From positions 174,481 to 238,480 of the forward strand of contig JBAZWC010000001.1 in NCBI GenBank assembly GCA_041660565.1: DNA of 64,000 bases, given 5' to 3'. The position numbers were made by a program, and so were the translations under genes. The DNA is from Patescibacteria group bacterium. Lineage in GTDB: Bacteria > Patescibacteriota > UBA1384 > CAJBMM01. Below the pieces are notes generated by a model, which saw only the letters and a program-made list of their open reading frames with translations, searched no databases and was not told the origin of the DNA. Numbering within the stretch: position 1 is the stretch's first letter; the number at the start of each line of letters is the position of its first letter. Below are positions 1,362-43,384 of this stretch, piece after piece.

Positions 1362-1375
1362 AATGTTCCTATATT

Positions 1376-1406
1376 TTCGAATTTAGTGCTTAGTGCTTCG
1401 AATTTC
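1376..1406. repeat. GTGCTTCGA / TTCGAAAT-type intergenic repeat, copy 1
   Basis: tcgaatttagtgcttagtgcttcgaattt. Related units occur at 19098-19142 and 56580-56700. Confidence 0.4.
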
Positions 1407-2077
1407 CATTCCCAGCAGGGGAATGGCTTGGGGGAGAGGGTGCAAATTTGAAATACCACTACGATTGGCTATCAAAGTCGGACGAATGTGACCAAAAGCC
1501 GGATTAGCGGATTAATAGAAAATGTCATAAAAATGACTAATAATTGTCATTTTGGTGAGCATAAATAACGACTGCAATTTAAGATCAATTTACGCTCGTT
1601 TAGAGTTTAGTACTCCCCTGGAGCATAATTTGTACAGGGAAGTGGTCTAATTTAAGCTCAAATGGCCCCTTAAAGCCCTACATTAGCTTATTATATGTAA
1701 GTGAACTATTTGATCATCTAAGGTATAAAATGAGCGTAAACTGGGGTCAGATATGCTATGAATGGTGAATCTTAGGGCGACGTATTGAGTATTTGTACGA
1801 GTAATAATGACGATCAATGACTGCCAGGCATGATCAAGCGTGCATAAGTGTCGCATAAGAATCATTGTACGACACAACGTGACTTGAAGCACGATGTACG
1901 AAATTATAAATTCAAAACAAAATCAAATTAAATAAGTTCGAAATTTTTTAAAAAAATCAATTTTCTTATTACGCCCCGCCCTATCTCTGGGTAGTCTTTG
2001 TATCCTATTTTAAAATTAAAAATTTATAATTTAAAATTTATTTTTACCTCTCCCCCGTTACCACTCCCCCACTCGTA

Positions 2078-2124
2078 TTTAAGATAAAGAAATTGCCGGC
2101 CAAGAGCATGCGCTCGAGGCCGGC
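2078..2124 (-). terminator. Hairpin plus T-rich tract ending the minus-strand small-peptide operon
   Basis: gccggcc-N16-ggccggc at 2095-2124. Followed on the minus strand by aatttctttatctt. Confidence 0.4.
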
Positions 2125-2131
2125 GAGAGGG

Positions 2132-2335
2132 CTAGTCTGGCATCGTCAGTTGCCGAACGATGAATCCTGCAGCAAAGACGATGATCAGCGACAAAACCAG
2201 TGTCAGATCACTGATGTAGTGACCGATCACCGCTCCCACGGTAAAGGCAACTAGTACTATCACGAACAGGGCGGTAGGAGACATCGCTAAGGCAATTCCC
2301 CCATCCCCCTGATCCTCGCCACGATCTTGGTCCAC
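2132..2335 (-). CDS. Small GC-rich transmembrane protein (67 aa)
   Basis: GTG start preceded by gggggaggtga SD. Hydrophobic helix-rich. Part of a GC-rich operon. Confidence 0.4.
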   Translation of the reverse strand: MDQDRGEDQGDGGIALAMSPTALFVIVLVAFTVGAVIGHYISDLTLVLSLIIVFAAGFIVRQLTMPD

Positions 2336-2379
2336 ACATCACCTCCCCCGTGATTAAATAGAACATCAGATTCGGTTCA

Positions 2380-2598
2380 TCACTTCGGCGTCGTATGCAC
2401 CGGATTGTCCTCATCGCGCGCCGTCATGCCGAGCCACCCGGCAACCGCCCCTACAACAAACAGTAACGTCGCCGGTCCGTACTTACTATGGCAAACGCAC
2501 ATGGCGCAGTTGATCCACGCCCCAACGCAGCCGATGCCAAACAACAGTCGCCAGTCACGAGCACGTATCGCGTCAACCTCACGCTTCAGTGGGTTCAT
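2380..2598 (-). CDS. Small GC-rich transmembrane protein (72 aa)
   Basis: ATG at 2598 preceded by gggaggtgat SD. TM segment LLFVVGAVAGWLGM. Confidence 0.45.
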   Translation of the reverse strand: MNPLKREVDAIRARDWRLLFGIGCVGAWINCAMCVCHSKYGPATLLFVVGAVAGWLGMTARDEDNPVHTTPK

Positions 2599-2599
2599 A

Positions 2600-2746
2600 T
2601 CACCTCCCTGTGATCGAGGTGAACAGTAGGAACGCGCCAGCGAGAAGGAATGCCGCTATGACGACGCAGATGGCGATCGTCGCCACGATCCATTTGGACA
2701 GGTCGCCAACGATTGCAAGGCCGGGGTCACTGCTCGAGCTTTGCAT
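2600..2746 (-). CDS. Small GC-rich transmembrane peptide (48 aa)
   Basis: ATG at 2746 preceded by gaaaggtga SD. Single TM helix IVATIAICVVIAAFLLAGAFLLF. The upstream part of the longer ORF has no SD. Confidence 0.4.
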   Translation of the reverse strand: MQSSSSDPGLAIVGDLSKWIVATIAICVVIAAFLLAGAFLLFTSITGR

Positions 2747-2931
2747 TGCGATCACCTTTCCACGTCCACATCGGTTCGTGGAGAACTGCTTGCTCCGGGT
2801 TAACCGGCACCCGGAATGGCGACTCCCCTGCCCGTACAATCGGGGCGGGGAGAAACATCACGATCATTACAGACATGACGCATAGCATCCGACAATCCCC
2901 TTTCGCACGTCAGGTTGTTGGACAATAGCTA

Positions 2932-2971
2932 TATTATACGCCAAAAGATGGACAATGTCCATCTTCGAAAG
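2932..2971 (-). promoter_or_regulatory. 40-bp direct-repeat unit 1 containing palindrome ATGGACAATGTCCAT plus an extended -10 on the minus strand
   Basis: tattatacgccaaaagatggacaatgtccatcttcgaaag. Minus strand reads ggcgTATAAT. 35/40 identical to the unit at 3920-3959. Confidence 0.5.
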
Positions 2972-3023
2972 AAAATCGGCGGTTACGCTTCTGCGCTCCG
3001 CCGACTTTATGGAATGAGGTGTG

Positions 3024-3836
3024 TCATGCTCCTGGATTCATGGTAACTACAACGAAGTCCCCTCTACTCGCGTTTGGAATGTCGTCCATCAATCGCGTAC
3101 TTCGATAGGCAGCTACGGACTTGACGTGAAATGACGAAAGCCCGACGCTAGAGGTGTAACTGGTGTCACGAGTCCCGTCGTCGCGGATTAAGCTAATTTT
3201 GCTGGTGATCTGCCCATCTACTATGCAAGCCACTACCCACGTGTCAGATGGATTGCGTTTTGGGTGTATGACGAAGTATATCTCACCCGCGACTTGGCCA
3301 GGGCTCATCGCACCGTTAATCGGCATCAACGGAGTACAACTCCCGTCCATCACATCTTGAGGTAAAAGCTCCCCAGCAGTCAAGCTCTCGCGGAAGCTTT
3401 TGTAAAACGCTGCAGTGCCGACGAATTTCCCGCCAACATCTGGTCCGACGTGATCTGACCGGGTATCAATGTGGTATCCGAGCTTGTCGTCGGTGCTATA
3501 ACTCAGTTCAGCCGGACTCCAACCACCCATGGTAGGGCCCTTAACCACTAGACCGTCGCCCGGTACGCCGAGCTTTATCTCCTGATCGGGCAATGATTCC
3601 CCGAGCAAGATGGGAAGCGTACGGTCTGGCTGATTTTGCACCGGTTCGGCCTGCTGGGGTTGGGCTACCTGAGTTGTTGGTTCGGCCTGAGACGGGGTTG
3701 GTGCTGTTGCCATGCTACTTGCCCCGCTGTACGAGCCTTCATTGCGTCGCACAACGGTAGTAATAATACCTAGCACTACAATGATCCCGACGACCACGCA
3801 GATCAGATTCACTGTGGTCTTCACTTCGTCTTGCAT
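3024..3836 (-). CDS. GC-rich membrane-anchored protein: N-terminal TM helix, Pro/Gln/Ala-rich linker, about 180-aa C-terminal domain of unknown function
   Basis: ATG at 3836 preceded by ggaggg SD. The listed ORF extends 11 codons further with no SD. TM segment LICVVVGIIVVLGIITTVV. Confidence 0.5.
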   Translation of the reverse strand: MQDEVKTTVNLICVVVGIIVVLGIITTVVRRNEGSYSGASSMATAPTPSQAEPTTQVAQPQQAEPVQNQPDRTLPILLGESLPDQEIKLGVPGDGLVVKGPTMGGWSPAELSYSTDDKLGYHIDTRSDHVGPDVGGKFVGTAAFYKSFRESLTAGELLPQDVMDGSCTPLMPINGAMSPGQVAGEIYFVIHPKRNPSDTWVVACIVDGQITSKISLIRDDGTRDTSYTSSVGLSSFHVKSVAAYRSTRLMDDIPNASRGDFVVVTMNPGA

Positions 3837-3919
3837 GGCTTGATCCCTCCATTGAGTTTGTGCGATCATCGGTCAAGCGACGTGTTAAAGTGCAACAGTA
3901 CGCCAGTGGTTGATGGATT

Positions 3920-3959
3920 TATTATACACAAAAAAATGGACAATGTCCTTCTTCGAAAT
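3920..3959 (-). promoter_or_regulatory. 40-bp direct-repeat unit 2 with palindrome ATGGACAATGTCC plus an extended -10 (tgtgTATAAT on the minus strand)
   Basis: tattatacacaaaaaaatggacaatgtccttcttcgaaat, upstream of the 3024-3836 gene. Confidence 0.5.
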
Positions 3960-3991
3960 TACAAATTTCGCGCTATCCCCTATTCGTATGG

Positions 3992-4651
3992 TTACTCAAG
4001 ATGAGTAAGATCGTTTAGGGTGATAATTTTCCAGCTACCGTCTGTTCTATTTTCTACAACGGTAATACCGGTATTGCCTAGTACAATTCCCATAGCAAAA
4101 CAACGATAAATATCTGTAGATAATATTTCTCCAAAGACCATCTCAGCTAGAAGAGTACGTAAGAAATTAGCGTGAGTAACTACAATAATTGTATCGTCTG
4201 ACATATCAGAAAGCTGATGGATAAATTTTTTAGCGCGGGTTCGGCTGTCAGCTAGATTTTCTTCATCGCTATGATGCCATGTCTCATCTTTAAAATTTTG
4301 CCAGCGCAGTTCGTCAAGCGCAATTACTTCTGGGTCATCATTTGATCTGCCTAAATATACACTCGGACTCTTTATTTCATGAATATCGTCGTGGATGTGT
4401 AATTCAGAAGTGATAGTTTTTTGTATAATCTCCGCGGTCTGTGAGGCGCGCGGGTAAGGGCTTGTTAGTATCCGATCCACTTGGATTAATTTTAGCCGGT
4501 TTGCCACTAGTTGTGCTTGCTCACGTCCTGTTTGAGTAAGTGATGCACTAGGGCCGAGTCGTATTTTCTGCTGGTTACTTTCTGATTCACCATGACGCAC
4601 AAAATACACTTTCATAAAAGTCCTTAGTGTTTTTGAGATCGGTTTTGCCAA
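3992..4651 (-). CDS. Histidine phosphatase superfamily protein (phosphoglycerate mutase-like)
   Basis: VRHGESESN motif (RHG catalytic His) and VVTHANFLR. Confidence 0.65.
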   Translation of the reverse strand: MAKPISKTLRTFMKVYFVRHGESESNQQKIRLGPSASLTQTGREQAQLVANRLKLIQVDRILTSPYPRASQTAEIIQKTITSELHIHDDIHEIKSPSVYLGRSNDDPEVIALDELRWQNFKDETWHHSDEENLADSRTRAKKFIHQLSDMSDDTIIVVTHANFLRTLLAEMVFGEILSTDIYRCFAMGIVLGNTGITVVENRTDGSWKIITLNDLTHLE

Positions 4652-6845: not shown

Positions 6846-6923
6846 TGTCATCCCGGACTCGATCCGGGATCCAGACTATAAACGATTATTTTACATAGAT
6901 TCCGGGTCAAGCCCGGAATGACA
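6846..6923. mobile_element. Miniature (empty) derivative of the GIY-YIG TIR element: two hairpin-containing terminal repeats separated by 15 bp
   Basis: tgtcatcccggactcgatccgggatccagactata plus aacgattattttaca plus tagattccgggtcaagcccggaatgaca. Matches the TIRs at 28603-29018 and 40750-41128. Confidence 0.55.
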
Positions 6924-6930
6924 ATGAAGG

Positions 6931-7545
6931 TCAAGGCAAATAAATAATATCGGTTTCCGAAGTTAACTTTGGCAAGATATCATCTTCAATAATTGAAAAT
7001 TGATTGGCAATTTGATCGACAAAAGTTTTATTCACAATAGCTACACCACGATAATGCCCCGAGATTTGCATAGTTACCGCAGCGGCATATTTTTGGTGAT
7101 ATTTTTGCAGGTTATCCCAGTTAAGGTCGATTTTTTCTTGAATATTAACCAGCACAAACTGATTTGGAAGCTGGTCATATATTTGCTTCAACCCTCCCCC
7201 ACTACCCAAATCGGTGAATGAAAATTGTAATTTATCTTCAAACTGATGTTGCGCCTCTAAAATGCTTTTAATTGATTGACCGTAATGGCCGTAAATTATC
7301 ATAAACTGATCAATGCCTTCGACCAACAGGCATTTCATCACTTTTATAATATAACCAGACGATTTTTCGACTCCCCTGCCCCCAACACACACCACGGCAA
7401 AATTTAGTTCAGTTTGCGGCAAAGCAGATTTTACAAAATAATTAATGGCATTAGATCGGTTTCGCAGGCCGTTTTTCTTAACTAAGATATCAATCTGTCC
7501 TAATAGGTGTTTATCCATGGTGATTGTGATGCGCTCATGAGCCAT
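6931..7545 (-). CDS. Ribbon-helix-helix (CopG-like) domain fused to a short nucleotidyltransferase-like domain, hypothetical
   Basis: N-terminal ITITMDKHLLGQIDILVKKNG RHH pattern. VVCVGGRGVEKSSG loosely resembles the NTP-transferase G-loop. Confidence 0.35.
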   Translation of the reverse strand: MAHERITITMDKHLLGQIDILVKKNGLRNRSNAINYFVKSALPQTELNFAVVCVGGRGVEKSSGYIIKVMKCLLVEGIDQFMIIYGHYGQSIKSILEAQHQFEDKLQFSFTDLGSGGGLKQIYDQLPNQFVLVNIQEKIDLNWDNLQKYHQKYAAAVTMQISGHYRGVAIVNKTFVDQIANQFSIIEDDILPKLTSETDIIYLP

Positions 7546-20366: not shown

Positions 20367-20561
20367 TTAGTATCCTCTCTTGATCGCTTTGCGTTCCGCC
20401 TTGCGGATAGCCGACATACGGCGTTGACCGCGGCTAGGCTCTTCGGCAAAGTAACGTTTCTTTTTTACGATCGATAAAAGACCGCTTTGCTGGATATCGC
20501 GATTAAAGCGGCGTAGGAGCACATCAAATCTTTCGTGTTCTTTTTTACGAACTTCGGTCAT
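20367..20561 (-). CDS. rpsU: 30S ribosomal protein S21
   Basis: 64 aa, basic, MTEVRKKEHERFDVLLRRF resembles the S21 N-terminus. Confidence 0.8.
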   Translation of the reverse strand: MTEVRKKEHERFDVLLRRFNRDIQQSGLLSIVKKKRYFAEEPSRGQRRMSAIRKAERKAIKRGY

Positions 20562-20783
20562 GAATTAAAATTCACCTCACCTTCGAATTTATAATGTAAT
20601 AATAACAGATCCGCAGGACTATGTCCAGCGTATCAGATGATGGAGAATTGAGGATGGATGATGGATTATTTTCTTGTTCGAGGAGTGAAACGACGAGAAC
20701 TATCTTTGTTTCCATCCTCTATCCTCCACCCTCCGATATAAAAATGAGGCGCCCCGCGATTACTCGCGAGACGCCCAGTGCGA

Positions 20784-21176
20784 TCAGGTACGCCTTGCCC
20801 ACGCGACCATGCAGTCGCAGGTGCAGAAGTTGGCGATAGGTCGGACTCGAGTGTCGTCAGGGTAGTACGCGACAACGGAAACGTGTGCAGCGGTAAAACT
20901 GATACGACCATCGCACTCAAGACACTTGACGAATCCGTTGGGGTAGCCATTGGGGTGTGGGTTTTCGTAAATCCCAAACCACACCGTCTGTGCAATGGTT
21001 GTTGTGTCACCCGGTCTTACGAGAAGATACCCGCGTATTGAATCGAGTGTCGTCAAGGTTCCTTTGGCTTCACCGGTAACGAGCCGTCGGAGCCTAGTGA
21101 GGCAGAATTCCTTCTCAGCCGGGCCCAACTCGCTGTCTGGGATGGCCGTGGGTCGGACACGATCTCTTCGCTTCAC
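20784..21176 (-). CDS. GC-rich hypothetical Cys-rich protein (about 130 aa)
   Basis: GTG start at 21176 preceded by aaagaggtga SD. CLECDGR and FCTCDC cysteine pairs. Third gene of a three-gene GC-rich operon. Confidence 0.5.
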   Translation of the reverse strand: MKRRDRVRPTAIPDSELGPAEKEFCLTRLRRLVTGEAKGTLTTLDSIRGYLLVRPGDTTTIAQTVWFGIYENPHPNGYPNGFVKCLECDGRISFTAAHVSVVAYYPDDTRVRPIANFCTCDCMVAWARRT

Positions 21177-21231
21177 AGTTGCTTCACCTCTTTTCGTTGA
21201 TGGTTGCCGCGAGCTCGCGAAACGCCCGTTG

Positions 21232-21624
21232 TCACAAACTCTCCTCGAGCATGTCTGGGATGGTGGCGGCAATCATCCTGTCCGCATCACGTTCCAGGTC
21301 ACTCAGCTCATCCAGAATATACTCTACCACCTGATGTGACAGAGACGCGTTCCGCGGATGGTCGTTTGCATATCTGGTGAGTAACCCTATCCTGGTCGCA
21401 AGTGACTGTGCGGCCAATAGCAGAGCCGCCACATCTGCAGCGCATCGATTGAACCGGCGCGGATGGGCTTGCCTTGACTCCCTGAGGCTGGTAGATAGGA
21501 ACTCAGGCAGAGTAACCTGGCACTGAGTTGCACTCCCATCTATGGCCATCCACGATCTGACCACAAGCTGTCCCGTGGTTTCGTCGTAACCGAATCCGTA
21601 TGACGATCGTACGTTTTCTGGCAC
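21232..21624 (-). CDS. GC-rich hypothetical protein (130 aa)
   Basis: GTG start preceded by aagagga SD. Middle gene of the operon. Confidence 0.5.
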   Translation of the reverse strand: MPENVRSSYGFGYDETTGQLVVRSWMAIDGSATQCQVTLPEFLSTSLRESRQAHPRRFNRCAADVAALLLAAQSLATRIGLLTRYANDHPRNASLSHQVVEYILDELSDLERDADRMIAATIPDMLEESL

Positions 21625-21660
21625 CTGTTTCCTCTTTCTACTGGGTGCTAATATGCTTCC

Positions 21661-21969
21661 CTAGCTCCCACTCCCCCTCATTCTCATATTCAGGTATTCT
21701 TGCCCTTCAACTCGAGTCATGAGAATGTGGCGGACGTAGCTGGAGAACGACGGCGTCAAGGCGCCCGCATCCAACGCCTCTTCTGATGGCCAGAAAGCGA
21801 ACTGGAAACCAGTAAACCTATCCCAAAGCTCATCGCCTCTGGCAGGTTCGGCAGTTAGAAACACTGCCACATCTTCGATTCCGAGCTCGTCGATGGTTTT
21901 GGCCAATTCTGTGGCGAGCAGCGTGTTTCCTTCCGACACCGCGGTCACATCAATCTGAGATACTGGCAC
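21661..21969 (-). CDS. GC-rich hypothetical acidic protein (102 aa)
   Basis: GTG start preceded by agaggtga SD. First gene of the operon. Confidence 0.5.
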   Translation of the reverse strand: MPVSQIDVTAVSEGNTLLATELAKTIDELGIEDVAVFLTAEPARGDELWDRFTGFQFAFWPSEEALDAGALTPSFSSYVRHILMTRVEGQEYLNMRMRGSGS

Positions 21970-22059
21970 TTAACTCACCTCTTTTCCGCCACGGAATGTT
22001 AGTCGTAGCTTTCAATCCACCTAAATGAACTAAAAGCCACGACCAAAAAATGTTAAGAT

Positions 22060-22102
22060 ACGAAAACGATAGTATTATATCATACTATCGTTTCGTGGTC
22101 AA
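22060..22102 (-). promoter_or_regulatory. Promoter (TTGACC-17-TATAAT with TGn) overlapped by a 15-bp-arm palindromic operator
   Basis: acgaaaacgatagta-ttatatca-tactatcgtttcgt (arms match except a 1-nt indel) centred on the -10. Plus-strand ggtcaa at 22097-22102 is the -35. Confidence 0.5.
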
Positions 22103-22112
22103 GGTATTTTCA

Positions 22113-22143
22113 TATAGATTCTTAGGTCTTGCCTGGAATGACA
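22113..22143. repeat. Degenerate solo terminal repeat of the GIY-YIG element family
   Basis: tatagattcttaggtcttgcctggaatgaca versus tatagattccgggtcaagcccggaatgaca. Confidence 0.35.
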
Positions 22144-22151
22144 AGGGAGGT

Positions 22152-24315: not shown

Positions 24316-24359
24316 GGTGTGTTCTCGATGTGAGAGCATTTTTTTGTATCTTTTAGGCA

Positions 24360-24387
24360 TAGATTCCGGGTCGAGCCCGGAATGACA
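24360..24387. repeat. Solo terminal repeat of the GIY-YIG element family
   Basis: tagattccgggtcgagcccggaatgaca. Confidence 0.5.
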
Positions 24388-24427: not shown

Positions 24428-26412
<1,985 letters not shown>

Positions 26413-27633: not shown

Positions 27634-28488
27634 TTATTTTTTTCCAATAACCACTACTAGTTCGGTGTCAGATGTGGCCATAGTGGCATCTACTTTGGCG
27701 GTGACAGAATAACCGGTTAACGCGGCAGCTAATTCGGTAGCGAGGTCTTTTTCGTTTGCGTTTTTGTAATAAACGTAAGAAGTGGTGTATGAATACGATT
27801 TCGCATTCGCAGTGCTTGAAACGGTGAAACCGGCGGCTGTAATGACCGTGGATGCCTTTGTGGCAGCCCCAGTGACTCCCCCACCGTTAAGCACCTTAAC
27901 TGTAACAGATGCTTTGGTTAACGCAGTGGACGAGGGCGTGGCGGTAGTGGTGGTGCTTGGCGAGATAGACGGGGTTGCTGTTCCCGTTGCGGTTGGAGTT
28001 GCGCTGGTAGTGGTTGAAGGTGAGGCGGTGGTAGTAGTTTGGCTGTTGTTATAAAAAATGACAGCTTGAGAAACTAATAACGCTAAAAGCGAAATCAAGA
28101 TAATTGACAAAAATGCGGTAATCCATTTCTGTTTCTTTGATGATTTTATTACCGGCGGCATAATTGATTGAGCTGGTGGAATTTTTTGTGCCGGAGCCAT
28201 TTCGGCGGTAGCCCGTGGGATAGTTGGTGCCTTGGGCTCATCTTCATCAATTTCAGGTTTAACAGCAACTGATTGGCTGTGTTCCGGTTTGTCTTCCTTG
28301 GGTTCTGCCTTATCGTTTTCAGGTTCAGACGGAGCATCTGTAAACGCTGCGCCGTGTTCAATGGCAACGTTCTCCACTTTTTCTGATTCTGTGTCTATAT
28401 GTTTTTCAGAAGAGTCGACAGTCTTGGCAGTCTTCTCGTCTGCACTATCCGGTTCGTTCTTTTTGTTTAAGTCAAAAAATTTGGCCAT
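27634..28488 (-). CDS. LytR_C-domain membrane protein with Pro/Glu/Lys-rich and Thr/Ser-rich linkers
   Basis: C-terminal VKVLNGGGVTGAATKASTVITAAGFTV matches the LytR C-terminal domain pattern. Confidence 0.4.
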   Translation of the reverse strand: MAKFFDLNKKNEPDSADEKTAKTVDSSEKHIDTESEKVENVAIEHGAAFTDAPSEPENDKAEPKEDKPEHSQSVAVKPEIDEDEPKAPTIPRATAEMAPAQKIPPAQSIMPPVIKSSKKQKWITAFLSIILISLLALLVSQAVIFYNNSQTTTTASPSTTTSATPTATGTATPSISPSTTTTATPSSTALTKASVTVKVLNGGGVTGAATKASTVITAAGFTVSSTANAKSYSYTTSYVYYKNANEKDLATELAAALTGYSVTAKVDATMATSDTELVVVIGKK

Positions 28489-28602
28489 ATTTTAATCCCC
28501 TTCTCTATTTATATTGTCATAGATTATCAGTATTAATGCAAGGGGATAAGATCAGGTATCAAGTTCTGTCATTTTAGATTTGACGTAAGACGTTTTGTCC
28601 TT

Positions 28603-29018
28603 GTCATTCCGGACTTGATCCGGAATCTATATAAAAAAATGTATAATTAATGCTGTATGAGCAAGTATTATTATGTTTATATTCTAGCTAGTTGCAAAAA
28701 TGGTACTTTATATACTGGAGTAACAAACGACCTGATAAAAAGAGTATATGTACATAAAAACAAATACAGCCAAAAAGGCTTTACGACAAAATATGGAATT
28801 TGCCTTCTTGTTTATTATGAAATGACCGAGGATGTGAATAGCGCTATTGCCAGAGAGAAACAAATCAAAAACTGGCATAGATCATGGAAAATCCAACTTA
28901 TTAAAAGTAAAAACCCAGACTGGAAAGATCTGTATGAGGAAATTTGTATATAGTCTGTCCCGAAGTGCGCTCGGGGTTGTTTGTTTTATATAGATTCCGG
29001 ATCAAGTCCGGAATGACA
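28603..29018. mobile_element. GIY-YIG nuclease gene flanked by perfect 32-bp terminal inverted repeats (element copy 1)
   Basis: Left tgtcattccggacttgatccggaatctatata (28603-28634). Right arm (28987-29018) is its exact reverse complement. Each TIR folds as a ccgga-N-tccgg hairpin. Confidence 0.7.
28657..28953 (+). CDS. GIY-YIG nuclease family protein (UPF0213-like)
   Basis: YYVYILASCKNGTLYTGVTNDLIKRVYVHK GIY-YIG motif, 98 aa. Confidence 0.8.
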   Translation: MSKYYYVYILASCKNGTLYTGVTNDLIKRVYVHKNKYSQKGFTTKYGICLLVYYEMTEDVNSAIAREKQIKNWHRSWKIQLIKSKNPDWKDLYEEICI

Positions 29019-29020
29019 GA

Positions 29021-29641
29021 TTAGAATTTCCGGATTACGCCTTTAACTTTTCCTTGCACGGTGACGTTTTTGGTTAGAATTGGTTTCATGGTTTTGTTGG
29101 CTGGCTGCAGGCGGATGTGCGTTTTCTCTTGATAAAATCGTTTAAGCGTAACGTTTTCGCGATCAATTAACGCCACCACAATATCGCCATTTTTAGCCAC
29201 TGTGGTTTGCTCAATAATGACATAATCACCATCAAAAATGCCGTCTTCGATCATTGAATTACCTTTAACTCGTAGTGCGAACACTTTTGGCCCCATCATA
29301 TCGCGTGGGATATCAATAGTCTCATGGGTTCGAACGGCTTGGATGGGTGCACCGGCGGCAATGATGCCCATTAAAGGAGCCGAAAAGCTTTGTTCGTCCC
29401 AAGTTGGGGTTAGCTGTAGTGAGCGTGCTTCGTTGGCTTCGCGGTTTAGATATCCTTTATTAGTTAAACTGTCGATGTGCTCGGCCACGGTGGCAACGCT
29501 AGACAACTTAAAATAATCGGCGATTTCGCGGTAGCTAGGCGCGTAGCCGTTCTCTCCGATGAATTGCTCAATATAGTCCAAGGTTTGTTTTTGTCGTTTG
29601 GTTAATGGATCCATTTGTCCTCCCGATTCTACATCCAGCAT
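29021..29641 (-). CDS. lexA: LexA repressor (S24 peptidase)
   Basis: N-terminal wHTH, KGNSMIEDGIFDGDYVII catalytic Ser/Lys region. Confidence 0.8.
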   Translation of the reverse strand: MLDVESGGQMDPLTKRQKQTLDYIEQFIGENGYAPSYREIADYFKLSSVATVAEHIDSLTNKGYLNREANEARSLQLTPTWDEQSFSAPLMGIIAAGAPIQAVRTHETIDIPRDMMGPKVFALRVKGNSMIEDGIFDGDYVIIEQTTVAKNGDIVVALIDRENVTLKRFYQEKTHIRLQPANKTMKPILTKNVTVQGKVKGVIRKF

Positions 29642-30704: not shown

Positions 30705-30860
30705 GTTTTGCCATCCTCGGCTAGTTTAGCCAACCGTTGCTGAAGCCGCGTTTTCGCGCGGTGGAAGAGTTGGCGCCTACCAGTTTCTGGTGGGTAGTGT
30801 CATGGCATCAACTGAGTTCAAGCATGCCGTTGAGTCTTGAATCCTAAGTAGTCGGGGGTG
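30705..30860 (+). ncRNA. Candidate structured non-coding RNA immediately upstream of the reverse transcriptase (possible retron msr/msd-type template RNA)
   Basis: GC-rich untranslated stretch after an extended -10 (tggtatagt). Hairpins ccgcg-ttttcg-cgcgg, ccag-ttt-ctgg and ggggcgag-N8-ctcgcccc. No ORF with SD. Confidence 0.3.
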
Positions 30861-31907
30861 ATCGAAGGGGCGAGGACGTTCTCTCGCCCCTTGTACCTTA
30901 CATCGAAAGGTGGTGATCTGGAGTTGAGCTATGGCTTACGACCAACCGAAGCGGCTGATTGGCTGATTCGCCGCTGTGAATTACCGCGGGAGTGGCGAGG
31001 TTACTTGGCCAGTGTAGTTGTTAAGCCGAGTAGCCAGTTTTACCACCAGTGGCAAATGCCGAAGAAAAACGGTGGATATCGGGTGATCCTGTCGCCGCTT
31101 GAACCACTGAAATCCGTTCAACGCCAGATTCTTCGCCACGTGCTGTGTGACCTAAGGATTTCGAGTGCGGCACACGGATTCGTAGGTGGTAGAGACATCA
31201 TTACTAATGCTCTACCCCATCTTCAGTCTCACTCCATGCTTGGTCTAGACTTGGCGGACGCATTTGGTAACGTCTGGCTTGGTTGGATGGCGTATCGTGA
31301 ATCGCCTAGGAAGACCACAGGACTAAAACTGGGTTTGCATCTGGACACTTGGCAGGCACTGTTGCCGTTTATCAGTTATGTGGACGATGATGACGGGATT
31401 CTGCCACAAGGCGCACCAACGTCGCCGGCGATTTTCAATGCAATGTGTTGTCGAATGGACACAATGCTGCTGAAACTTGCCAAAAACGTGGGCGGAGTGT
31501 ACACACGCTACGCCGACAACCTGACCTTTTCGATGCCAGGACCTTCAGTGGGGCAAAAGTTGATCAACGCAATCTTGCGTATTGTTGATGACGATGGTTT
31601 CCCACTGAATGATGACAAAACGCAACTACTACGCAGTGCCAACAACTTTAACCGGCCACTGCGCCTGCCAGGGCTGAACATCATTAATGGCCAACTAGTT
31701 CTGCCCGCCGACACACTAAAGCGCTTTCGTAGCGCTATGTACCGCGCTGGTCAGGACAGTTGCAGTGATGATGACGAAGTGCGCGATCATGCACGTCGAT
31801 CGCGTAGAGGCATCAAGGGATACGTCATTCGCATCTACGGCGAGTTGCCGCCACAACTACGTGGCATGTACGAAAAAGGACGCATACACGCGTCCGAAGA
31901 GACCTGA
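30858..31907 (+). CDS. Reverse transcriptase, retron-type (RT domain only, 349 aa), motif C reads YADN instead of YADD
   Basis: Motifs in order: KKNGGYRVI, ITNALPH (NAxxH), LGLDLADAFGNV, LPQGAPTSPAIFN, VYTRYADNLTF. GTG start. Alternative starts are possible. Confidence 0.75.
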   Translation: MIEGARTFSRPLYLTSKGGDLELSYGLRPTEAADWLIRRCELPREWRGYLASVVVKPSSQFYHQWQMPKKNGGYRVILSPLEPLKSVQRQILRHVLCDLRISSAAHGFVGGRDIITNALPHLQSHSMLGLDLADAFGNVWLGWMAYRESPRKTTGLKLGLHLDTWQALLPFISYVDDDDGILPQGAPTSPAIFNAMCCRMDTMLLKLAKNVGGVYTRYADNLTFSMPGPSVGQKLINAILRIVDDDGFPLNDDKTQLLRSANNFNRPLRLPGLNIINGQLVLPADTLKRFRSAMYRAGQDSCSDDDEVRDHARRSRRGIKGYVIRIYGELPPQLRGMYEKGRIHASEET

Positions 31908-40686: not shown

Positions 40687-40749
40687 AGTTTTATCTTAGC
40701 ACAACTGTCTTAATAGATCGAGATACACTTTTTATATGTCGTCCTCGTT

Positions 40750-41128
40750 GTCATTCCCGCGAAGGCGGGAATCCAGTCTATAAAAAAATGTATAATTATG
40801 GTATGGATAAATATTATTACGTATATATTCTCGCAAGTGATCGGAATGGCACTCTGTATATTGGAGTTACATCAGATTTAGTTGGCAGGATTTATCAACA
40901 TAAAAAAGACTGCGACGAAAAAGGATTCACCGCACAATATCAGGTTCACCGTTTGGTATATTATGAAATGACTAAGGACGTAAACAGCGCCATCACTAGA
41001 GAGAAACAGATTAAAAAATGGAACAGATCATGGAAAAAACGTTTAATTGAAACTAAAAATCCGGAGTGGAAAGACCTATACGAGGAAATTCATTCATAGA
41101 CTGGATTCCCGCCTTCGCGGGAATGACA
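40750..41128. mobile_element. GIY-YIG nuclease gene flanked by perfect 32-bp TIRs (element copy 2)
   Basis: Left tgtcattcccgcgaaggcgggaatccagtcta. Right arm is its exact reverse complement. Hairpin stem cccgc/gcggg replaces ccgga/tccgg of copy 1 (compensatory). Confidence 0.7.
40788..41099 (+). CDS. GIY-YIG nuclease family protein (paralog of the 28657-28953 product)
   Basis: YYVYILASDRNGTLYIGVTSDLVGRIYQHK. C-terminus KNPEWKDLYEEI is shared with copy 1. Stop codon lies inside the right TIR. Confidence 0.8.
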   Translation: MYNYGMDKYYYVYILASDRNGTLYIGVTSDLVGRIYQHKKDCDEKGFTAQYQVHRLVYYEMTKDVNSAITREKQIKKWNRSWKKRLIETKNPEWKDLYEEIHS

Positions 41129-41139
41129 CCCGATTATGT

Positions 41140-42195
41140 TTATTTATAACTCCATAACACAGATCGCTTAAACGCGTCTAGGTTATCTACCGCAATTAAG
41201 GTGCCTTTGGCAACGCAGAACAGCGGGTCTTCGGCAATTTGGCATGGTACACCGGTTACTTTGCTCATTAAGCTATCAAACTGACGCAATTGAGAAGTGC
41301 CACCGGTCATCACAATCCCCTTGTCCATTACGTCGGCTGCCAGCTCGGGCGGAGTTTTTTGCAAAACCGATTTTACCGCGTTCAAAATCTCGGCAATTTC
41401 TTCTTTGATGCTGGTCATTACATCGGTTGAAGTAACAATAACGCTTTCGGGTAGGCCGGAAATGGTGTTACATCCCGAAACTTCCATCGAGAGCTCTTTA
41501 GCTAATGGCATCACCGTGCCAATACGAATTTTAATTTCTTCGGCTGTCTGTTCGCCAATTACTAGATTGTATTTTTTTCGCATGTAGGCTGCAATGGCAG
41601 TGTCAATCTTGTTGCCGCCCACTCGTACCGATGTAGCCGCCACAATATCGCCAAGCGCGATCACCGCTACCTCGGTGGTACCGCCGCCGATGTCAATAAT
41701 CATGCTTCCGGATGGGGTGTTGATTGGGATGCCCGCTCCTAAAGCCGCAGCAATGGGTTCTTTAACTAAGTACGCATGTTTTGCGCCGGCTTGGGTGATG
41801 GCGTCGATAACCGCGCGCCGTTCAGTAGAAGTTATGCCCGCTGGAATAGAAACCATTACATCTGGTTTGATGATGCGGATTGATCCCGAAACCTTATTGA
41901 TGCAATGTCTAAGCATAGCTTCGGTAATGCGATAGTTGGCAATCACCCCGTCTTTTAATGGATGATTTGCCACAATTGACTCTGGAGTACGGCCGAGCAT
42001 TTTCTTGGCTTCCTCGCCAATGGCCATAATTTTATTGTTAGATGCTTCCAGCGCCACAACCGTAGGCTCATTTAATACCACGCCTCTTTTGGGGAGACTG
42101 ACGATGGTGTTAGTTGTTCCTAGATCGATTGCAATTCGCGCCATATTATTCCTTGTAAGCGATGTTAGTATAAAAGAAAATGTCCGAATATACAA
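41140..42195 (-). CDS. mreB: Rod shape-determining protein MreB
   Basis: IAIDLGTTNT phosphate-1 motif, actin fold. Confidence 0.85.
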   Translation of the reverse strand: MYIRTFSFILTSLTRNNMARIAIDLGTTNTIVSLPKRGVVLNEPTVVALEASNNKIMAIGEEAKKMLGRTPESIVANHPLKDGVIANYRITEAMLRHCINKVSGSIRIIKPDVMVSIPAGITSTERRAVIDAITQAGAKHAYLVKEPIAAALGAGIPINTPSGSMIIDIGGGTTEVAVIALGDIVAATSVRVGGNKIDTAIAAYMRKKYNLVIGEQTAEEIKIRIGTVMPLAKELSMEVSGCNTISGLPESVIVTSTDVMTSIKEEIAEILNAVKSVLQKTPPELAADVMDKGIVMTGGTSQLRQFDSLMSKVTGVPCQIAEDPLFCVAKGTLIAVDNLDAFKRSVLWSYK

Positions 42196-42250: not shown

Positions 42251-43384
42251 GTGTGGTATAATTGCAGTATGATAATTGGCATAAACGCCTCTGCGCTTAC
42301 TCTGGAGCACAAAACTGGTGTCGAAAAATACACCGAGCACATTATTCGTGCGCTAATTAAGCGTGCGGACAAAAAGCATCAATTTAAGTTGTACTCCCCT
42401 ATCCCGCTGAGTGGTGATTTTGCCGCACATCAAGTGGTACTTAAATCTCATGGTTTGCCGTGGACACAAGTTAGATTGTCGGTTGAACTAATGCGGCATC
42501 GCCCCGATGTATTTTTTCAACCTAGCTACATGCTGCCTCCTGTTTGTCCATGTCCAAGTGTAACAACTGTACACGACATCGCTTGGAAGCACTTTCCCCA
42601 AGGGTACAGCCAAGATCAAACTAAAAAACTACATCTGGCGATAGACCGGATAATCAAACTCAAAAGCACCATTATTGTACCAAGCATTGATACCAAAAAA
42701 GATCTGATGCATTTTTTCAAAATCAATCAAAACAACATCAACGTTATCCCCGAGGCGTTGGTGGAGCTGCCGGTTGGAGATATCAATTTACATCCAAATA
42801 TTGCCAAAATGGCGGACCGCGATATCGTTTTGTCCGTTGGGCGGCTTGAAGCGCGAAAAAATACTTTGACGCTGGTTAAAGCGTTTCGAGTTTTGGTTAA
42901 AGATCACCTCAAAAATTCCCCCACCAAACCAGTGTTGGTACTAATTGGGCAGGCGGGGTTTGGGGCGGATGAGATTTTTGCCGAGGTAAACAAAGCCAAA
43001 AACGATGGCATTGAAATATTGGTGCTAAATAATGTGGATGATTCCGCGTTAAGCTGTTGGATGTCTGTGGCAAAAATGCTAGTTTATCCATCGCTGTTTG
43101 AAGGGTTCGGATTGCCAATTTTGCAGGCGTTTGCTGCCAAGATTCCGGTTATCACCAGTAAGACATCCGCTATGCCAGAAGTTGGTGGAGGTGCGGTTGC
43201 GTATTTGAATAATCCGAAAGACGAAGACGAGCTGGCGATACTAATCAACAATTTACTGTTTAGTAATGCCAAACGAGAAATTTTGATAGACAAAGGGCAA
43301 ACTAGACTAAATGATTTTTCGTGGGAAAAAGCGGCCGATCAAACGTTGGCAGTTCTGCTGGCGGCTGGAACAAAAAATTCATAA
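42251..43384 (+). CDS. Glycosyltransferase family 4
   Basis: PSLFEGFGLPILQAFAAKIPVITS signature. True start probably the internal ATG (MIIGINAS). Confidence 0.65.
   Translation: MWYNCSMIIGINASALTLEHKTGVEKYTEHIIRALIKRADKKHQFKLYSPIPLSGDFAAHQVVLKSHGLPWTQVRLSVELMRHRPDVFFQPSYMLPPVCPCPSVTTVHDIAWKHFPQGYSQDQTKKLHLAIDRIIKLKSTIIVPSIDTKKDLMHFFKINQNNINVIPEALVELPVGDINLHPNIAKMADRDIVLSVGRLEARKNTLTLVKAFRVLVKDHLKNSPTKPVLVLIGQAGFGADEIFAEVNKAKNDGIEILVLNNVDDSALSCWMSVAKMLVYPSLFEGFGLPILQAFAAKIPVITSKTSAMPEVGGGAVAYLNNPKDEDELAILINNLLFSNAKREILIDKGQTRLNDFSWEKAADQTLAVLLAAGTKNS

Follow-up and report, generated by a model that had tools for sequence, protein, structure and literature searches.

What kind of element is a very short GIY-YIG nuclease gene that stands between two perfect inverted repeats, each of them able to fold into a hairpin? 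This question is raised by a 64,000-nucleotide stretch of a Patescibacteria (Berkelbacteria-like) metagenome-assembled genome (MAG), referred to here in its full length as the window, in which two such units are found within 12 kb of each other. A preliminary description of one of them, made from the letters alone, had proposed a compact transposon-like or homing element. Here, we argue that each unit is very probably a gene of the Ssn nuclease family together with its own hairpin repeats, in an arrangement resembling that of the repetitive extragenic palindromic (REP) sequences and their RAYT transposases. Whether the nuclease also moves the unit is a separate question, for which the evidence on both sides is weighed below.

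Two Ssn-family genes and their hairpin arms

The Ssn proteins are single-domain GIY-YIG nucleases of ~94 amino acids (aa), listed as cd10448 in CDD and treated as a family of their own (Chenal et al. 2025, Nat Commun 16:2388, PMC11893778). The founding member, SsnA from Neisseria meningitidis, binds a repeat named NTS, CGTCATTCCCGCGMAVGCGGGAATCYRG, which includes the old dRS3 repeat (PMC11893778). It does so only on single-stranded DNA, cutting a few nucleotides (nt) 5' of the repeat and leaving double-stranded DNA, RNA, and the complementary strand uncut (PMC11893778). The three bases preceding the palindrome are the most important ones for cutting and the C after it is the most important one for binding, whereas on the protein side the residues mutated in that study were Y6, Y17, and E64 (PMC11893778). 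In the meningococcus, SsnA reduces the integration of transforming DNA bearing the repeats. The same authors found the repeat near 71% of the Ssn homologues that they surveyed, on both sides in 42%, and described the NTS-ssnA-NTS architecture as well as its resemblance to an insertion sequence (PMC11893778). The arrangement, first taken here for an element not usually annotated, had therefore already been described.

Both window genes encode relatives of SsnA. Their products, of 98 aa each, contain a PF01541 domain that spans residues 4-79 and no further domain. They align over nearly the full length with the 94-aa SsnA orthologue from Neisseria gonorrhoeae, read from the gonococcal record NZ_CP119140.1, at 51% identity for protein 1 (E = 9e-36) and 63% for protein 2 (E = 7e-40), the published criterion of Ssn homology being E < 1e-10 to SsnA; the tblastn match to the gonococcal SsnA locus has E = 2e-28. 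The catalytic residues Y8, Y19, and E67, which correspond to Y6, Y17, and E64 of SsnA, are invariant in an alignment of 25 sequences and in both window proteins. The name UPF0213-like, under which the first gene had been introduced, is thus only approximate, since the search against PDB gave nothing but a distant UPF0213 match (BH0048, a YhbQ-type protein, 1zg2, E = 2e-5), which likewise is a small stand-alone GIY-YIG domain. We know of no report of hairpin repeats next to UPF0213 genes. Neither nuclease was matched to a defence system by PADLOC. Looking up the exact protein sequence gave nothing, even though a homology search showed an identical annotated protein on a 516-kb contig of a Patescibacteria MAG.

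A GIY-YIG catalytic domain would also be expected of a free-standing homing endonuclease gene, which makes a double-strand break at the empty allele and is then copied in by repair, as exemplified by phage Seg and the intron-encoded GIY-YIG enzymes. Even though NCBIfam has no specific model for the window proteins, they show a weak, sub-threshold similarity to TIGR01453, the model of group I intron endonucleases (16-17 bits against a cut-off of 56), and the absence of the units from relatives, detailed below, would fit homing as well. However, both proteins are single 98-aa domains that lack the C-terminal DNA-binding module expected of such enzymes, the characterised members of the family do not cut double-stranded DNA, and homing leaves unexplained the inverted arms, the gene-less doublets, and the dispersed solo repeats. 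Viruses are likewise poor in close relatives: no close homologue was found in curated phage genomes, where identity reaches at most 39.5%, and a relative at 45% identity or more is carried by only ~45 of 2.9 million viral contigs. With no DNA-binding domain, and with characterised relatives that spare double-stranded DNA, the homing idea is very improbable.

The other distinctive part of the units is their arms. Around the first gene, the 32-nt inverted arms described initially, each one a hairpin, were found to be perfect, the right one at the place given for it and the left one starting one base further to the left, so that the unit measures 417 bp and not 416. An inverted pair like TGTCATTCCGGACTTGATCCGGAATCTATATA appeared in 0 of 100 dinucleotide shuffles, and the inverted repeat is prolonged to 38 nt at 97%. 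As single-stranded DNA, the arm folds into an 8-bp stem, ATTCCGGA/TCCGGAAT, closed by a 5-nt loop (-7.6 kcal/mol; z = -3.6 to -4.5, the left arm having z = -4.5). The second copy that had been mentioned is present too. This unit 2 (40749-41128) has arms that are perfect over 33 nt, TGTCATTCCCGCGAAGGCGGGAATCCAGTCTAT, and prolonged to 41 nt at 93%, and its hairpin class differs from that of unit 1. The two proteins are 70% identical, and the DNA homology between the units extends from the outer end of one arm to that of the other; both units are old paralogues and not products of recent transposition.

Directly inside the left hairpin, both units carry the same 20-nt block, TATAAAAAAATGTATAATTA, which an alignment of the two units shows to be fully kept whereas their remaining DNA has diverged. 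Within this block, TGTATAAT (28640-28647) is an extended -10-like element. Since it stands 9 nt before the ATG start codon and within a block identical in both units, we read it as the putative extended -10 promoter of the ssn gene; the two-hexamer promoter scan did not call it, and hence the promoter function is assigned from position and conservation only. The coordinates of all these features are collected in Table 1.

Table 1. Parts of the two ssn units, related structures of the window, and the duplicated unit found in another genome
Feature	Position	Strand	Description
Unit 1 left arm	28602-28633	+	TGTCATTCCGGACTTGATCCGGAATCTATATA; TGTC-tagged SRM-like hairpin of the 5-nt-loop class; stem 28606-28613/28619-28626
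Conserved 20-nt block	28630-28649	+	TATAAAAAAATGTATAATTA; directly inside the left hairpin, identical in units 1 and 2
ssn gene 1	28657-28953	+	98-aa single-domain GIY-YIG nuclease of the Ssn family; PF01541 E = 1.3e-14
Terminator-like hairpin and T-rich run	28957-28987 (hairpin 28957-28977)	+	3' of gene 1, from the terminator scan
Unit 1 right arm	28987-29018	-	exact reverse complement of the left arm TGTCATTCCGGACTTGATCCGGAATCTATATA
Unit 2 left arm	40749-40781	+	TGTCATTCCCGCGAAGGCGGGAATCCAGTCTAT; canonical NTS/CGTC-1-type hairpin, 8-bp stem, 4-nt loop; -8.9 kcal/mol as DNA
ssn gene 2	40803-41099	+	98-aa Ssn-family GIY-YIG nuclease; PF01541 E = 2.2e-17
Unit 2 right arm	41096-41128	-	runs over the gene 2 stop codon and reaches to 12 nt from that of mreB
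Gene-less doublet	6846-6923		78 bp; two inverted hairpin modules, tags outward, nothing else between
Solo hairpin repeat	24359-24387	-	TGTCATTCCGGGCTCGACCCGGAATCTAT; in the 5' region of gene 24428-25141
Duplicated 517-bp ssn unit	L007 1368-1884; L011 1368-1884		on two contigs of the Desulfacyla MAG

With regard to the genomic surroundings, unit 1 is placed between the genes for a LytR_C-domain protein (27634-28488, -) and for LexA (29021-29641, -), the stop codon of the latter lying 2 nt from the end of the right arm. The closest relatives of this LexA include Berkelbacteria. Unit 2, in turn, has a GT4 glycosyltransferase gene on one side and mreB on the other. All neighbours of the two ssn genes run in the opposite direction.

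The hairpin repeats within and beyond the window

The window contains seven hairpins of the tagged type, four of which flank the nuclease genes whereas the other three lie away from them. Each of the seven combines a 5' (C/T)GTC tag with a stem of 8-9 bp that begins with AT, a loop of 4-5 nt, and a C that immediately follows the palindrome. The frame GTCATTCC..GGAATC matches six of the seven, against 0.02 matches expected, and the seventh, the left arm of the doublet, has the variant tag GTCATCCC. Their stems vary by paired changes that preserve the pairing, and all of them fold stably as DNA. Rfam has no family for these hairpins, its sole match in the window being a tRNA. They are members of the CGTC/TGTC-tagged REP superfamily, whose repeats have a short tail and an 8-9-bp stem that starts with AT and closes on a loop of 4 or 5 nt (Di Nocera et al. 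2013, PMC3733652). This superfamily includes dRS3 from Neisseria and RPE-6 and RPE-4 from Rickettsia, is found mostly as inverted dimers, often of two different variants, and was described as having 'no dedicated transposase' (PMC3733652).

Published patterns fit these hairpins to different degrees. The arms of unit 2 agree with the Neisseria NTS consensus at 27 of 28 positions and also fit the degenerate SRM pattern, and the left arm of the doublet fits the published NTS/SRM pattern, whereas the doublet right arm, the solo copy, and the arms of unit 1 fall outside the SRM pattern owing to the composition of their stems. The SRM pattern also matches TGTCTTACTGGTGATAACCGGAATCTTG (43138-43165, -), inside the glycosyltransferase open reading frame (ORF) at 42251-43384; this match is probably due to chance, because its stem is poor.

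The link between gene and inverted repeat, which had been noticed in a single place, turned out to be general. Homologues at 60-72% identity are found by the thousands in Patescibacteria, Omnitrophota, Chloroflexota, Desulfobacterota, Pseudomonadota, and other phyla, and, when 80 homologous loci were surveyed with one genome per species, inverted tagged hairpins stood on both sides of the gene in 56 loci, on one side only in 18, and on neither side in 6. The arms of a unit resemble each other more than they resemble those of other units (82% against 69% +/- 1%; 0 of 2000 permutations reach the observed value), being identical over tag and hairpin in 12 of 50 units. Two hairpin classes recur, both with an 8-bp stem: in one, to which unit 2 belongs, the stem closes on a 4-nt loop (for example, CCCGCGAAGGCGGG), and in the other, to which unit 1 belongs, on a 5-nt loop of the CTTGA type.

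The repeats also exist apart from the gene. The exact 25-nt core of the unit 1 hairpin occurs in at least 123 copies on at least 120 metagenome contigs; for all of the 123, the surrounding 200 bp are free of Ssn homologues, and only one contig carries such a homologue at all. Of these copies, 63 belong to inverted doublets whose members, separated by ~15-35 nt, have their tags outward, 9 show the opposite arrangement, and 10 are in tandem; within a doublet, the partner of the core copy is never the identical variant. The doublet of the window is, therefore, the common stand-alone form of the repeat. It agrees with the empty derivative reported at the outset, its stems differ by paired changes (CCCGGA..TCCGGG in one, TTCCGGG..CCCGGAA in the other), and its DNA fold has -19.3 kcal/mol (z = -4.9). 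Generic REP-like hairpins and static genes, the picture that had been set against a mobile element from the beginning, are largely what is seen, in the form of 123 copies distant from the gene and of one lineage with a vertically inherited locus.

The closeness of some repeats to the ends of genes raises the alternative that the hairpins are ordinary host regulatory elements, such as terminators or stabilisers of mRNA 3' ends, and that the GIY-YIG gene merely happens to lie between two of them. The minus-strand arms of the doublet, unit 1, and unit 2 are found 7, 2, and 12 nt after the stops of three minus-strand genes, namely a 204-aa gene (6931-7545), lexA, and mreB (intervals 6923-6931, 29018-29021, and 41128-41140), and REPs are generally found 3' of genes, where they may have a role as RNA elements (PMC3733652). 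Such arms could double as 3'-end RNA hairpins for these genes. As an account of the units themselves, however, a regulatory origin is most improbable: the association recurs across phyla with hairpins on both sides in the majority of the loci (56/80), the arms covary within the unit, the hairpins are not followed by T-runs, and direct binding and cleavage have been shown for homologues of the nuclease.

Probable mechanism and possible mobility of the cassette

The mechanism of binding and cutting has been established for homologues from Neisseria and Wolbachia (PMC11893778). Transferred to the window, it would start once the DNA is single-stranded, with the repeat forming its 8-bp hairpin. Bound to this hairpin, the 5' GTC tag, and the 3' C, the nuclease would cut a few nt 5' of the tag, leaving double-stranded DNA and the complementary strand uncut. 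Because the arms are inverted, the readable site is at the left end of the cassette on the + strand and at its right end on the - strand, so that either strand would have one cleavable site just outside its 5' boundary, a geometry that comes from the sequence, the cleavage being predicted from the homologues. The likely effect in the cell would be the hairpin-directed cutting of single-stranded DNA, be it incoming, replicating, or recombining. As in a REP/RAYT pair, a resident nuclease gene is embedded in its cognate repeats, which are also dispersed as solo copies and gene-less inverted doublets, and the cassette was probably acquired by insertion in this lineage. The predicted cut geometry suits a selfish or domesticated cassette, and also a hairpin-directed restriction of single-stranded DNA.

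The comparison with the closest available relatives covered seven loci, ~44 kb in total, four of them around lexA (two from one genome; LexA 81-86% identical) and three around the GT4 gene (58-64% identical). None of them contains an Ssn gene or a hairpin of this kind, and so both units are absent there, as an insertion would have it. In one relative (L208, 1288-1647), a small gene of the 23S_rRNA_IVP/bAvd family and an extra GT4 gene follow mreB at the place that unit 2 has in the window; within the lineage, the interval after mreB seems to be variable.

Some of the results weigh against the interpretation of the units as Ssn genes with cognate repeats inserted in this lineage. The absence from relatives comes without a clean empty site, since, in relatives with 79-86% identity in LexA or 58-64% in GT4, the gene order next to lexA and mreB differs and, for this reason, no precise empty site can be aligned. 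The single-strand specificity and the cut position assumed above are extrapolated from four tested homologues. The hairpin of unit 1 misses the published SRM pattern, although a single stem pair, A:T in place of G:C, accounts for this. Moreover, in the sample analysed, the loop class (4 or 5 nt) does not track the protein clade, identity being 55% among members of the 5-nt class and 56% across classes (908 of 1000 permutations reach or exceed the within-class value), and some of the surveyed units carry arms of two different classes, which together make the idea of a cognate pair a looser one.

A further alternative would be an autonomous compact transposon, with the GIY-YIG protein as the transposase, the arms as the ends, and the doublets as derivatives comparable to miniature inverted-repeat transposable elements (MITEs) or REPINs, perhaps moving through a single-stranded intermediate as IS200/IS605 elements do. 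Several features of the units agree with it. The arms are perfect over 32-33 nt in both units despite a 30% difference between the proteins, terminal inverted repeats bound the unit, and the homology between the units stops at the outer arm ends. The doublet corresponds to exactly two arm modules minus the interior, and inverted doublets with outward tags are the main stand-alone form of the repeat (63/123). Both units are absent from the relatives examined, proteins 60-72% identical are found across distant phyla, and the likeness of the architecture to an insertion sequence was noted in the original study (PMC11893778). In addition, a 517-bp ssn unit occurs at two sites of a Candidatus Desulfacyla euxinica MAG, 98.6% identical, with sharp ends and unrelated flanks; both insertion sites look palindromic.

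Nevertheless, the evidence against such a transposon is considerable. The duplicated 517-bp unit has as its boundaries a different, outer inverted repeat, GCATTACCAGTTTGTTAAAG, without relation to the tagged hairpins; these are located further in. The search for target-site duplications suggested at the outset came out negative, with none at the three structures of the window and a mean of 1.92 nt over 53 units, against 1.81 +/- 0.18 nt for permuted flanks, and the same analysis yielded no flanking target motif. As said above, the two window copies are old paralogues. The great majority of the hairpins stand apart from the gene, arms of mixed class are present in some units, and the relatives examined offer no clean empty site. 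Two related betaproteobacterial MAGs (L033 and L039) have the ssn locus in the same, orthologous place and are 87% identical there over 3 kb; this stable position points to vertical inheritance. In L039 (~1825-1860), one hairpin downstream of the ssn gene has a 33-nt insertion in its loop, as compared with L033. The unit has no second gene: its sole ORF is the GIY-YIG domain, and no recognised transposase of the DDE, HUH, serine, or tyrosine type is found in it. To our knowledge, no strand-transfer or ligation activity has been described for a 98-aa GIY-YIG domain, and no joining chemistry is known for this enzyme that would account for the propagation of the repeats.

The transposon-like history proposed initially is, thus, compatible with the data without being demonstrated by them. 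An autonomous transposon as defined above seems to us unlikely, and a role of the nuclease itself in mobilising cassette and doublets is likewise doubtful. A tentative variant, which we would not favour either, is a mobile element of a new mechanistic class, where the GIY-YIG protein would nick each strand just outside the tagged hairpins and the replication and repair machinery of the host would complete the copying; the gene-less doublets with outward tags would then be, with the same low probability and only together with that mechanism, its non-autonomous derivatives. If the cassette were indeed mobile, the long-orphan CGTC-tagged REPs (dRS3, RPE, and others) would have found their mobilising enzyme.

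Related systems and further features of the window

The preferred reading, that of Ssn genes flanked by their own repeats, places the units next to several known systems. They are closest to the Ssn/NTS-SRM systems (PMC11893778), with which they share a single-domain GIY-YIG protein of ~94-98 aa, the same catalytic residues, inverted flanks tagged with (C/T)GTC, and extra dispersed repeats. The differences are that the host belongs to the Patescibacteria, a group not mentioned in that work, that two paralogous units occur in 64 kb, each with its own hairpin class, and that there are seven repeats in 64 kb as opposed to hundreds in pathogenic Neisseria. The repeats themselves resemble the CGTC-tagged REPs in the TGTC tag, the 8-bp stem starting with AT, the short tail, and the inverted dimers of differing variants, the 4-nt loop of unit 2 being CGTC-1-like and the 5-nt loop of unit 1 CGTC-2-like. 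In contrast to the window, where four of seven repeats flank nuclease genes, no dedicated enzyme was found in that study, which left the Patescibacteria out (PMC3733652).

With REP/RAYT systems and their REPINs, the units have in common the gene for an enzyme that recognises hairpins in single strands, flanked by its own palindromic repeats, which are also dispersed as singlets and inverted doublets, and a largely vertical inheritance of the gene in some lineages, here L033/L039. However, the enzyme is a hydrolytic GIY-YIG nuclease instead of an HUH/Y1 transposase and the tag is CGTC/TGTC instead of GTAG, so the resemblance is a functional one only. IS200/IS605 elements are similar in being compact units with end hairpins recognised as single-stranded DNA and in making no target-site duplication; contrary to the units described here, their two ends do not form an inverted repeat, and their HUH TnpA cuts and rejoins, an enzyme with no counterpart in the window units.

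The kind of system, its architecture, the repeat family, and its dimer organisation have, then, all been published before. What is new is modest, namely the instance in Patescibacteria, with two paralogous units with perfect arms and differing hairpin classes within such a short distance, and a hairpin variant just outside the published pattern. Two units side by side form a natural pair for asking how such a small protein reads its hairpin. From the standpoint of annotation, a name can now be given to the 98-aa 'GIY-YIG nuclease family proteins' and to the repeats beside them, and the anatomy described here makes the mobility of the cassette and the doublets testable.

A retron-type reverse transcriptase is encoded at 30858-31907 (+), 1.8 kb from unit 1 (PADLOC RT_XIII, E = 5.9e-59; Pfam RVT_1, E = 3e-18), in a stretch with 49% G+C against ~42%. 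Even though retrons make single-stranded DNA, its position beside a single-strand DNA nuclease is probably a coincidence, because lexA, a hypothetical gene, and a SpoU methylase gene intervene.

Two further regions of the window were noted. The first one, at 1362-3023, is ~1.6 kb without an ORF of at least 110 aa, within a 2-kb stretch of 52% G+C (2001-4000), and has no Rfam match at E <= 1. The second one, at 20450-22150, comprises ~1.7 kb of 50% G+C with only short overlapping ORFs, where Rfam gives only microRNA matches at chance level.

Finally, the gonococcal record that served as reference for SsnA (NZ_CP119140.1) and NZ_CP119142.1 are 2.17-Mb sequences labelled as N. gonorrhoeae plasmids that are evidently chromosomes. 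In the former, the feature list lacks the ssnA orthologue, which has at least four dRS3/NTS hairpins within 350 bp, on both sides.

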